DNA of 63,191 nt, filler included, from Globobulimina sp. (taxonomy: Eukaryota), in NCBI GenBank assembly GCA_003354225.1. It is 45 parts of 45 records of this genome, joined end to end, with 100 filler letters (N's around TTAATTAATTAA, not from the genome) between each part and the next. Parts side by side here need not be neighbours in the genome. Positions count along the whole stretch, not along the records: positions 43,612 to 44,917 come from PIVH01019006.1; 44 more parts are not named here. One strand, written 5' to 3'. Below, piece after piece: positions 22,964 through 54,447 of this stretch (within the stretch, counting starts at the first letter, position 1; the number at the start of each line of letters is the position of its first letter). The notes under the pieces are model-generated. The model saw only the letters and a program-made list of their open reading frames with translations. It was not told the origin of the DNA and ran no database searches. A program made the translations under genes and the position numbers.

Positions 22964-23824
22964 TCATTTTATTATATTCATTTGATAATATACAGTTTTG
23001 ATTCGAGGGCGCAGCACATATTTTGTCGGTTTCGAGACATATTTTGTCGGCGTATCTTCATAATAATATAGTTTTAGGTGAATTTTCGGTGCATTGAAGG
23101 TATTATAGCCGGCGTCGGATGGATCGTCATAGTCCGCATTGTCATTGTTAGGTAGCAATGAGCGGATTTTATAGGAGTCATTGGCATTAATTTGTATTAT
23201 CTCAAACAGCCCAATCCAGCGTTCCTCGAATTTCTGGCGATTGCCAATATAATGCGAGGCCATATTATACAATACGTGCTGACCAATGACGAATGGATCA
23301 TCAATCTTATTTTTATCATGCGATGCAGCTCGGAGTTCATCATAAGTCCGTTGGGCCTCATTGGCGTCGCTGCGAATAATATTCAACCGATTTGCCATAA
23401 ATCGGGTATATTCCAATGGATTCTCGCGATCGAACTCGTAATTCAATATTTTATACGGATCGCGGCCAAATACGATATTCATGGGCGAGTATGTGGTCAT
23501 ACGATTCGGCAATGAATTGTATGTATATTGAATGATTGAGAGGTAATCGGACCAATCATCGGTCCCATTTAAAAAATTTAGACCTCCGTCCTGCGCGATC
23601 AACGCCAGCCGCTCCTTCAACCAACGATGTAGTCGCTCGATCTGCCCATTACATTCTGGATGGTATGTCGCTGTGTACTTTCTTTTGACATCACCATGGT
23701 TCAACATATAATTTTTATACATAGATGAGATAAATTGGCTGCCATTATCGGATAGGATACTTTCGGGCGGCCCAAACGTTGCGGTCCATTTATCTATGGC
23801 TTTGATGACGGAAATGGCTCGAAT
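22964..23824 (-). mobile_element. Ty3/Gypsy LTR retrotransposon integrase (rve core and GPY/F-type C-terminus), 5'-partial
   Basis: FGPPESILSDNGSQF, YHPECNGQIERLHR, YNS...TTYSP..IVFGR, RWIGLFEI. Confidence 0.93.
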
Positions 23825-43611: not shown

Positions 43612-43797
43612 TGTCGCAACTGAGTCGTTAACCGACACACTGTGTCGCAACTGAGTCGTTAATCGACACACTGTGTCGTAAATCGACAATCTGTGTCTTG
43701 AATAGACAATCTGTGTCTTAAACCGACACTATGTGTCATGAATCGACAATCTGTGTCGTAAATCGTCAATCTGTGTCTTGAATAGACACTCTGTGTC
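43612..43797. repeat. Tandem array of about 20-bp units (two of about 31 bp) with palindromic core GACA(C/A)nnnGTGTC
   Basis: About 8-9 units such as AATCGACAATCTGTGTCTTG, running off the contig end. Confidence 0.9.
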
Positions 43798-43933
43798 AAA
43801 CAGTTATTATTTACAAATTTTTACTTCTTTTACATACAGCTATGTACAAACAACATTGCTTTTTACACTACAAAACAGTATCTACAAAACATGACATATT
43901 TTTAGTCTTTTCTCTTTTTCGGTACAATAATAT

Positions 43934-44917
43934 TTATAAAAATCGTTTCATTCGATTATTCCTCTGTTGTTTTGTCTTTGTCTTTTGGCGTTTCATTGCT
44001 TTCTTTTCCTTTCCCTTCTTTGGTTTTGTTTTCCCCACATGTTCTGCCCATGTTATCCATTTAAATTTTGGTTTAATGGCAACCATTTCTGGATCCGGTT
44101 GAACTGTTACAGTAGGAACCTCTGGGACTTTTGGTTCTGGCTGAATTGTTGTGATAGGTGATGCATTGTTTGCACGCCCTTCCAGCTCCGATGTTAGAAT
44201 ATCCGTTCTAATTCTAAGATGTTCTGGAGTTGCTGTGCAAAGATCGACAAGTACATGGCCATAACGTTTCCTTGATTCACGTTCATATGCTGCGACCAAG
44301 ATTCTCTGTTTTCCAAGCTGTGAGCCCAATGTTGCCACCTGTTTTGCCATTCGAGGTGATTTTAGTAGAAAAAAGTAAGCTGTGTTGGCCGAAATGATCC
44401 TGCTGCTTGGCCAAGGCCCAAAAATAAAGTGCAACAAGAGCACGATACTGCAGTTTTTATGTCGAGCAATTGTGAAAACTTGGGCCACTTCTTTACTGCT
44501 GGCTGCAGAGATAGAGTTGTCGTCAATTATTATCAGTGTTTGTCCACCATTTGGATCGGCCATAGCTTCGAGATCAGCTTCTGTGATGATTGATCCCTTG
44601 ATAAAGTCACACTTTATCCCTTGAGCAGCCAGATTCTCCCTTAATTTCATATATGAGTCTTGCATACCTAGAGTGAAAATTGTTTTTAAATGTTAAATTC
44701 AAACAAAAAGTACTTACAGCTGTAGATAAAGTACACTCGAGTTGGTATGGGATTGTAGATTTGAGTTGCATTCTCAAGCGTTTTCATGAGCAAGTATGTT
44801 TTTCCCTGAAAGAGAAGAAACATTAAATGAAACTGAGGTACTTATACTGCACTTACGCTCTGACTTGAACCAGAATAAATGAAATTGTTTGGCAGTTGGA
44901 GTCTTTTATCAAATTCA
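43934..44917 (-). CDS. A32/FtsK-HerA packaging ATPase of Polinton/Maverick/adintovirus type, 5'-partial; introns 44806-44856 and 44668-44717
   Basis: Spliced product: FIYSGSSQS|GKT (Walker A), LIIIDD (Walker B), FTIARHKNCS, SRIISANTAY, YGHVLVDL, RIRT. Confidence 0.88.
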
Positions 44918-53453: not shown

Positions 53454-54447
53454 TGCGTCCAAATCCATGGATAAGGCGGTAAATTATATGGCGTATTTGC
53501 ATCGCTTTGATGATGATGAAATAGAGCAAGAAAGCGACGATTTTGCTGACAACAATGATTTTGATAAAATAATAAAAAGCTATAATCAGGGAAATAAAAA
53601 GAATTTTGGTACAGAGAGACACGAAAAGAGCCTGAAAGCAATAAACTCGATTTTAGAATTAGACGAAGTGGAACCGCTTATAATGTCATTCAAAGAAGGA
53701 AAGGCAAATAACAGTGATAAATCCAACTACGTTCTATTACGAAATGGAATTGATATTTTAAAGCAGGGATTGTATCTTTGCTACAATTCATTATTCATTT
53801 TAGGTATCAGAGAGATAACGATGAACATAAGAGATATTACAGTGATATTAAAATCAGGCAAACCAGCAAAATATATGGATAGCTACAGACCCGTTTCCTT
53901 GCAGTCGAGCTGTAGTAATCCGTACGATAAATGGATGGCGGCTAAATATTTAAAGTATGGGATTGAAATGAAAATAATTAAAGAGAGACACTTTGGATTT
54001 GTGAAAGGATTAGGTTGTGTTGACGCGATTGGATACATTGTAGAGCAGATTTGGAATAATAGAGTTATTAAGAAAGATACGCATATATTATTTATAGATT
54101 TTAAAGCAGCATTTGACACAATTCAACATAAAATAATATTAGAATGCATTAGTATTAATATAGGTATCAAAGGATTTGCGTTTGAATATTTATTTGTTGC
54201 ATTAGAATTTAGATGGGGCAGAGTCAAAATATATGGATATTATTGTACGTGGAGACAGGATATTTGTGGTGTACCACAAGGATGGCCCCCTTCGTCGATA
54301 TTATTCATATTCTTTACAATTGAATTTGATGCATTGAATGGACTTAAAATTGGTTTAGTTATCGTAGGATATGCCGACGATAATACTGTGTTTTCGGATG
54401 GATCAGTCAACGGAGAGGAGCTGAGACGAAACATTCAATATGATTGA
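53454..54447 (+). mobile_element. Non-LTR (LINE-like) reverse transcriptase, truncated just after YADD
   Basis: SYRPVSL, HFGF, FIDFKAAFD, GVPQG..S.ILF, YADD. Confidence 0.92.

Follow-up and report, generated by a model that had tools for sequence, protein, structure and literature searches.

A viral-type packaging ATPase gene in Globobulimina sp. DNA carries two conserved introns of spliceosomal type, one of which splits the P-loop

We describe a gene for a virus-type DNA-packaging ATPase of the A32/IVa2/B204-like kind in a 63,191-base stretch of DNA from a Globobulimina sp. genome assembly, here called the window. The gene is interrupted by two short introns, the first of which divides the ATP-binding loop (P-loop, Walker A). 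It lies on a separate contig of 1306 nt (43612-44917, 38% G+C) and is a real protein-coding gene, of which the window holds the 3' two-thirds; the 5' part is missing, as the contig ends 20 codons into exon 1. New here are the fixed spliceosomal introns of an A32-type packaging ATPase and the zinc-finger head of its relatives. We lean toward the view that the gene belongs to a Polinton/adintovirus-like, virus-derived element lineage of an AT-rich eukaryote that has become adapted to nuclear expression; that it is part of a mobile or viral element, be it integrated or episomal, and that the repeat arrays beside it have any role, is what we infer. The window as a whole joins 45 unrelated contigs of 1305-1308 nt each, ordered by length and separated by spacers of the form N...TTAATTAATTAA...N, and the sequence next to the ATPase contig is therefore uninformative on gene context.

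Read on the minus strand, the contig contains the end of exon 1, a complete exon 2 and a complete exon 3 (Table 1). Exon 1 closes with the residues ...NNFIYSGSSQS at 44857, where intron 1 cuts the Walker A codons between S and G, and excision of this intron gives GSSQS/GKT (the slash marks the junction). Exon 2 opens with GKT (44805-44797), continues with YLLMKTLENATQIYNPIPTRVYFIYS and ends on the first base of a Cys codon, which is completed across intron 2 to give YSC/MQDSY. Besides the Walker B and ARH motifs, exon 3 carries the remaining ATPase core and a lysine-rich C-terminal tail. The initial annotation, made from the window alone, had proposed two minus-strand introns of 51 nt (with an in-frame TAA) and 50 nt, a split P-loop, a Walker B motif and an ARH motif, all of which hold base for base. 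The Walker A consensus (GxxxxGK[ST]) is formed only across intron 1 and is collinear with the contiguous GASQSGKT of an intronless relative (P0048), and both Asp residues of Walker B are invariant in alignments of 34 and of 37 sequences. Beyond the ATPase core, the C-terminal tails vary sharply between copies: the window (43937-44035) and many relatives have a lysine-rich tail, others a long one rich in Asp, Glu and Ser (P0006, P0007, P0009 and P0017 were compared).

To place the introns in their family, relatives were collected by several routes. A word-based search returned 33 homologues with 45-87% identity, all on contigs of ≤3 kb, and a scan of metagenomes returned 17 DNA loci (L001-L017). 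The only match in a scan of GTDB genomes (L018) lies on the same 3414-nt contig as L017, filed in a metagenome-assembled genome labeled Gammaproteobacteria, where it is probably mis-binned. Both introns are found at identical codon positions in all 14 sequences that span the region (13 metagenome loci and the window). Intron 1 ranges from 46 to 61 nt and intron 2 from 48 to 56 nt across these sequences, all 28 introns have GT..AG ends, and the donor reads GTAAGT in 10 of the 14 copies of intron 1 and in 11 of the 14 copies of intron 2. Over the 91 pairs, median nucleotide identity is 0.75 for the final 60 nt of exon 1, 0.72 for exon 2, and 0.57 and 0.58 for the interiors of introns 1 and 2, respectively. 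Within the window, a scan of the 45 contigs for short introns with a GTAAGT donor joining long open reading frames (ORFs) had intron 2 of the ATPase as its sole result.

The conservation of intron 1 extends further. In two distant loci of Guaymas type (L015 and L016, 40-42% identical), the P-loop is split at the same site, as GTSGS/GTAAGT...AG/GKT, which brings the count for intron 1 to 16 of the 16 assessable DNA loci; L002, L017 and L018 start too late for intron 1 to be judged. Intron 2 is absent from L015, L016 and the protein P0030, with L015 and L016 running straight through the site, and to judge by this distribution it is the mark of a subclade.

The intronless relatives recovered by profile search are single ORFs, as in P0048 (...RRLQLPNHFIFCGASQSGKTLLF...VIFFYAEFQDSY...). 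When three of them (P0048, P0036 and P0043) were aligned to the window by tblastn, each left a 17-residue gap exactly over intron 1 and switched frame at intron 2, while their own residues are contiguous across both sites. The initial annotation had raised the case of homologues that lack the upstream exons; what we found are both introns in 14 of 14 copies and exons collinear with those of intronless relatives. By their GT..AG ends, the restored frame and motif, and their drifting length and sequence, the introns are, as far as DNA can tell, U2-type spliceosomal introns, and splicing of both at the RNA level is inferred. Contigs from sequencing runs, of DNA or of unlisted kind and none on record as RNA, gave three reported joints on this stretch, none coinciding with an intron.

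A tree of 43 rows unites the 13 copies bearing both introns in a single clade (support 97/94), to which P0037 is sister, and places L015 and L016 with the intronless P0036 (98/93); the tree has an arbitrary root and leaves out most representatives as well as L002, L011, L017 and L018, which are too short. The grouping of L015 and L016 with P0036 implies that P0036 has lost intron 1 or that this intron arose twice at a single site. P0036 itself may be a processed copy, having lost the intron, or a lineage of its own. As a side observation, this closest intronless relative of L015 and L016 has GKI in Walker A, not GKT. A second gene of L015 shows an apparent 62-nt GT..AG intron of phase 1 (L015:2077-2138), which joins ...AMCSFLQ to GEWTRGKAHNK..., and its L016 homologue is split at about the same place. 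Given this case, introns may characterize the whole element beyond the ATPase.

Because the introns are fixed, every one of the 33 database gene calls of the close family lost the ATP-binding loop, and the expectation that ORF callers miss the P-loop is borne out: a full Walker A is present in 0 of 33. Two of these calls start just before GKT and six contain the exon-2 peptide, five of which translate intron 2 as junk residues.

Table 1. Coordinates of the ATPase gene and its flanking repeats in the window.
Feature	Position	Strand	Remarks
Exon 1, 3' end only	44857-44916	-	20 codons, EFDKRLQLPNNFIYSGSSQS; cut by contig end 44917
Walker A, first half (GSSQS)	44857-44871	-	in exon 1
Intron 1	44806-44856	-	51 nt, GTAAGT...TTTCAG, phase 0, in-frame TAA
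Exon 2	44718-44805	-	88 nt, GKTYLLMKTLENATQIYNPIPTRVYFIYS and first base of Cys codon
Intron 2	44668-44717	-	50 nt, GTAAGT...CTCTAG, phase 1, within Cys codon
Exon 3	43937-44667	-	last two bases of Cys codon and 243 codons
Walker B (LIIIDD)	44519-44536	-	in exon 3
ARH motif	44459-44467	-	in exon 3
Stop codon TAA	43934-43936	-	read directly
Tandem arrays, 3' flank	43612-43797	.	begin 137 nt past the stop and extend to the contig end
20-nt repeat units	43651-43797	.	about 7 copies, a short palindrome in each
31-nt repeat units	43612-43678	.	2.2 copies, a short palindrome in each

The coding sequence is maintained across the family. Exon 3 is open to a stop codon, over 187-288 codons and with no frameshift or premature stop, in all 12 copies that reach one, and two further copies run off their contigs. 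Over 93 ungapped codons, dS is unsaturated in 25 of 91 pairs, and for these the ratio of nonsynonymous to synonymous divergence (dN/dS) ranges from 0.02 to 0.21 around a median of 0.10. The other 66 pairs are saturated, with a median proportion of synonymous differences (pS) of 0.83; the nonsynonymous counterpart (pN) has a median of 0.18 over all 91. A dN/dS of about 0.1 together with saturated synonymous divergence indicates a family that has diverged deeply under purifying selection, which strongly disfavors a decaying pseudogene. The copies are also numerous. In one sequencing run (X1), probably of the source sample, 102 contigs fall on the stretch, 29 of them at ≥99% identity, 21 at 95-99%, 17 at 90-95% and 35 below 90%, and 12 of the loci come from one whole-genome shotgun set. 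From these sequences the family would be either multi-copy or spread over several related genomes. In its diverged form it occurs in several marine or sediment data sets.

The identity of the protein was approached through profiles and predicted folds. A profile built from 37 sequences and run against 1.84 billion representatives matched 3756 proteins at E≤1e-3 and 1584 at E≤1e-10. Among 50 relatives chosen from 150 listed profile matches, 32 match Pfam Pox_A32 (PF04665) at E≤1e-3 (best E 1.2e-10), three match Adeno_IVa2, two FtsK_SpoIIIE and three zf-C2H2. The fold evidence comes from a model of L015, a 40%-identical relative, rather than of the window protein: the AlphaFold2 model of the L015 ATPase ORF has a predicted local distance difference test score (pLDDT) of 79.4 and a predicted template modeling score (pTM) of 0.73. 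Searched with Foldseek against BFVD, this model has 37 matches at E≤1e-3, led by adenovirus IVa2 and A32-like packaging ATPases of nucleocytoplasmic large DNA viruses (NCLDV). Among them are also an FtsK-like protein of an adintovirus, Sputnik V3 and the ATPase of a Yellowstone Lake virophage, and the mavirus ATPase, at E 1.3e-3, lies just beyond the threshold. With the same model, Foldseek returned 0 PDB matches at E≤1e-3. VIA-align over 48,161 PDB chains ranked the packaging NTPase B204 of Sulfolobus turreted icosahedral virus 2 (STIV2) first, with a Z-score of 10.6, a root-mean-square deviation (rmsd) of 3.6 and 169 residues aligned, followed by VirB4 (Z 10.1), HerA (8.1) and FtsK (7.8). 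As modeled, and with the profile matches of its relatives, the protein is an A32/IVa2/B204-type viral packaging ATPase of the FtsK-HerA superfamily. The A32-like affinity proposed in the initial annotation is thereby upheld, by the fold matches and by the 32 of 50 relatives that match Pox_A32.

The relatives also supply what lies upstream of the window gene. In close relatives, exon 1 has 101-135 codons (nine loci with a mappable start), starts with M-A-P... and codes for a pair of C2H2 zinc fingers, then a variable linker and, at the donor, FDKRLQLPxNFIYAGxxQS. A full-length relative thus runs from the N-terminal C2H2 pair through the linker and the ATPase to a charged tail. Of the 13 exon-1 ORFs from close copies, the two scanned with Pfam, L003 and L008, both exceed the zf-C2H2 cutoff (E 1.6e-6 and 3.3e-8, respectively); in the others the CxxC...HxxxH pattern was read by eye. 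The finger-ATPase fusion also exists in intronless form as a single ORF (P0043, P0075 and P0117), and a C2H2-like pattern, by regular expression only, is present in 19 of 145 representatives. L015 and L016 are without zinc fingers. These fingers were beyond the view of the initial annotation, for the window contig starts too late to include them.

Close copies of the gene are adjoined by tandem arrays of palindrome-bearing units of 20-41 nt that share a style and differ in sequence. In eight of nine loci with a mapped start, an array ends ~40-230 nt upstream of the start codon, L013 having none; in the window and in L014, arrays lie downstream of the stop. The upstream units read ATCCTCATATATGAGGAT in L001 and L005, GCCCTCATATATGAGGGC in L004, CCACATATATGTGG in L009 and L010, and CCCAAATTTTGGG in L003. 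The 20-nt unit of the window was not found in related loci with up to 4 mismatches, and two repeat-unit patterns gave 0 matches in IMG/VR. Summed depth in run X1 is about 160-210 in array bins and about 13-120 in gene bins, and parts of the window array also occur in two runs from other studies (X2 and X3), which shows that the repeat is more widely spread than the window copy of the gene. Further out, G+C-rich palindromic repeats of the CCGCCGCGCGG... type occur at L004:1-71 and L009:51-180, 91% identical between the two; lying upstream of the AT-centered arrays, they form a second repeat layer upstream of the gene. The L014 contig terminates, at L014:1886-1920, in an irregular repeat, C-rich and CCCACA-like, whose C-rich strand points towards the end, the wrong orientation for a telomere.

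Under the Polinton/adintovirus-like reading, the gene would be transcribed in a eukaryotic nucleus, where the host spliceosome would remove the two short U2-type introns. The P-loop would then exist only in spliced mRNA, as intron 1 separates the GSSQS codons from those of GKT. The product would presumably be a ring-forming translocase, an ATPase that still moves DNA, to which the zinc fingers probably add sequence-specific DNA recognition, perhaps of the palindrome-bearing arrays beside the gene. Such recognition could serve a packaging or terminal signal or a promoter element, by analogy with adenovirus IVa2 and its A repeats and promoter elements. In the packaging domain IVa2 binds to the A repeats, and it joins complexes on late-promoter elements (PMC4404914). 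The fuller version, in which a Polinton-like lineage with long nuclear expression has acquired fixed introns together with a C2H2 head that reads the adjacent arrays as a packaging or terminal signal, is speculative, and we regard it as rather unlikely. If true, it would mean a built-in module for sequence-specific recognition of pac sites on an A32-type motor, in parallel with adenovirus IVa2 and the A repeats. In the literature on packaging ATPases, zinc fingers and Polintons, supplements aside, no description of the zinc-finger-ATPase fusion or of the neighboring palindromic arrays was found.

Several observations weigh against assigning the gene to a Polinton-like element. The initial annotation had called the ATPase 'Polinton-type', a label that did not stand: no pPolB, integrase, capsid or protease gene was found on any related contig, all of which are short, no inverted terminal pair could be defined beside the gene as terminal inverted repeats, since none of the contigs extends across an element, and no recognizable gene was seen in the flanks of close copies. 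Pfam found nothing above cutoff in 17 neighboring ORFs of the distant-clade contigs L015-L017, and no rve integrase among these ORFs of short contigs. A candidate pPolB fragment (L015:753-1262) was dropped, having no Pfam match and no homologue among longer proteins. Scans of IMG/VR with the window ORF, alignment A1, P0047 and P0085 found no relative. Examined by eye, the close-clade flanks (≤0.6 kb upstream, 1.1 kb downstream) consist only of repeats and low-complexity ORFs, a setting that suits a host gene and contrasts with the tight packing of a Polinton; the sole shared flank, downstream of L005 and L009, is 86% identical over 443 nt. Introns at fixed positions over saturated synonymous divergence are, moreover, the usual signature of vertically inherited host genes. 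On its own, the exon-3 ORF of the window falls under the Pox_A32 cutoff of 22.8 bits, at 16.7 bits against 15.0 for the L015 ORF, both queries missing the P-loop region in part or entirely. The window contig, whose exon 1 starts only 20 codons before the donor, does not include the zinc fingers, and the link proposed between arrays and fingers is one of co-occurrence only. Polinton membership of the gene is thus not shown.

The same observations give weight to a host-resident, domesticated family, in which the host long ago took over an A32-like ATPase gene from a virus or Polinton. The gene would have been joined to C2H2 fingers, would have acquired introns in the manner of host genes and would now work for the host, perhaps as a DNA-binding translocase, a regulator or an antiviral factor, its copies being paralogues or the orthologues of several species. 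We hold this to be possible and a serious contender, though on the doubtful side. Intron positions kept over saturated dS with a dN/dS of about 0.1, a C2H2 fusion typical of eukaryotic nuclear proteins, flanks that are gene-poor and repeat-rich with no viral neighbor, an intact exon 3 in the 12 copies reaching a stop, and related loci from metagenome collections of possibly several related species would all be expected of it. It sits less well with the distant clade, where L015 (5.9 kb) and L016 (5.4 kb), which carry intron 1, and L017 (3.4 kb) are gene-dense contigs with common modules in shuffled order. On L015, the neighboring ORF divergently oriented to the ATPase (L015:3175-3672, minus strand) has a 98%-identical copy on another contig, and its nearest ESM Atlas clusters are viral, among them a Sputnik V18/19 minor-capsid cluster (score 0.94). 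On follow-up, this ORF had only one close homologue, an AlphaFold2 model with pLDDT 48 and 0 BFVD matches at E≤1e-3, and its identification as a penton or minor-capsid protein is a lead only. Domestication also accounts poorly for run X1, with its many close and distant variants of the same stretch, and for the mosaic flanks, as L005 and L009 share their downstream sequence although their ATPases are more diverged, which suggests a mobile or recombining element.

A free, non-integrated DNA virus of the organism or its associates that replicates in the nucleus and splices its packaging-ATPase mRNA as adenoviruses do, with the contigs as genome fragments broken at arrays, is improbable. Adenovirus IVa2 is among the best fold matches, the copies are intact and under purifying selection, and contigs often end inside arrays (at the 5' end in L003, L005, L008, L010 and L011, and at the 3' end in the window), all as such a virus would have it. 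Against this, the IMG/VR scans found no relative, no capsid gene was found on any contig, and the contigs of all 33 close homologues, at ≤3 kb, are shorter than those into which a viral population usually assembles.

An ordinary cellular P-loop NTPase without viral relation is more improbable still. The sub-cutoff Pfam match of the window ORF, the source name 'adenylate kinase family enzyme' of one among 10 relatives whose names were inspected and the middling PDB scores of RecA-like cellular ATPases would suit it; the BFVD matches are nevertheless dominated by viral packaging ATPases, the best of all PDB chains is the viral packaging NTPase B204, and the relatives match Pox_A32, Adeno_IVa2 and FtsK_SpoIIIE. 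The initial annotation had named cellular NTPases as best matches as the result that would count against it, and for the L015 model it is viral packaging ATPases that lead both the BFVD and the PDB lists. Least credible of all is a decaying viral insertion, a pseudogene whose 'introns' are chance GT..AG stretches or small insertions: 'introns' from gene prediction in vertebrate Mavericks do often signal degraded copies (PMC8097293), but here the two sites coincide in 14 of 14 copies while the stretches themselves vary in length and sequence, dN/dS is about 0.1, exon 3 is undamaged in the 12 copies that reach a stop, and the exons are exactly collinear with intronless homologues.

These findings indicate that a core morphogenesis gene of viral type is able to carry fixed introns. 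That such genes are usually intronless was known already, and the initial annotation rightly said so. The ORFs of intact vertebrate Mavericks are reported to lack introns, 'in agreement with Kapitonov and Jurka (2006)' (PMC8097293), and the core gene set of nematode Mavericks, FtsK-like ATPase included, is described as intronless, with introns reported only in host-derived cargo genes (bioRxiv 10.1101/2022.07.12.499685). Surveys of Polintons, Mavericks and Polinton-like viruses mostly rely on simple ORF finding, with the explicit premise that genes of viruses are intronless (PMC9356565, PMC10748475); a nematode Polinton survey found its genes with an ORF finder and tblastn, and spliceosomal introns are not discussed in the accessible part of it (PMC10748475). 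In surveys of this kind, whole intron-bearing lineages may be missed or scored as degraded. Conserved introns under strong purifying selection point either to a virus-like element that has resided in the nucleus for a very long time or to domestication of a viral motor, and either outcome bears on gene exchange between viruses and hosts. The finger-ATPase fusion and the palindromic arrays together offer a testable idea of how motors choose DNA.

The remaining contigs of the window provide the background of the assembly. Seven of ten long ORFs on them have family matches at E≤1e-3 (sterol-sensing/Patched, BTB, Vps4-like AAA ATPase, Rpb2, Kelch, reverse transcriptase and integrase core, the last below its curated cutoff), and three have none; this set of families marks the assembly as eukaryotic. 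The metazoan, nematode-like host suggested in the initial annotation found no support, and one further window ORF of unassigned function had no ESM Atlas match above a score of 0.84. The reverse transcriptase ORF (RVT_1, E 4e-18; 53455-54444, plus strand) and the integrase-core fragment (rve, below cutoff; 22967-23824, minus strand) are retroelement pieces on other contigs. ORFs that touch a spacer are artefacts, and the adjacency of contigs in the window has no meaning. Rfam gave 0 matches over the whole window.

Among known systems, the best solved-structure match is STIV2 B204 (PDB 4kfr; Z 10.6, rmsd 3.6, 169 of 204 residues), an FtsK-HerA type motor of the PRD1-adenovirus lineage. It differs in being an archaeal virus protein of about 10% identity without introns or fingers. 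The poxvirus A32 and NCLDV A32-like proteins (PF04665) are the family that most relatives match (32/50) and are many among the fold matches, whereas the window ORF alone lies under the family cutoff. NCLDV genes are cytoplasmic and mostly without spliceosomal introns, and we know of no NCLDV A32-like protein with a zinc-finger fusion.

With the FtsK-/A32-like ATPase of Polintons and adintoviruses, the protein shares a core of about 200 aa, a Walker A near the start of the domain, a Walker B of the form hhhhDD and an (A/G)RH motif, the fold matches to an adintovirus FtsK-like protein and virophage ATPases, and the multi-copy occurrence in eukaryote-derived DNA. What sets it apart are the two conserved introns and the C2H2 pair of its relatives, as against the intronless core genes described for Mavericks. 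Spliceosomal introns inside Polinton-like viral elements are known from dinoflagellates, where introner transposons populate maverick-polinton-like proviruses (bioRxiv 10.1101/2025.03.18.643946). Those are described as recent introner-transposon insertions, whereas the introns here, of ~50 nt and with no transposon features seen, are fixed at the same codon positions over deeply diverged copies.

Adenovirus IVa2 is the top BFVD fold match (E 9.1e-6, TMq 0.64), although it lacks C2H2 fingers, has about 14% identity and is matched as Adeno_IVa2 by three of 50 relatives against 32 for Pox_A32. Its mRNA is spliced. The further likeness that we propose is that of a packaging ATPase which, like IVa2, may also recognize repeated DNA motifs and promoter elements (PMC4404914).

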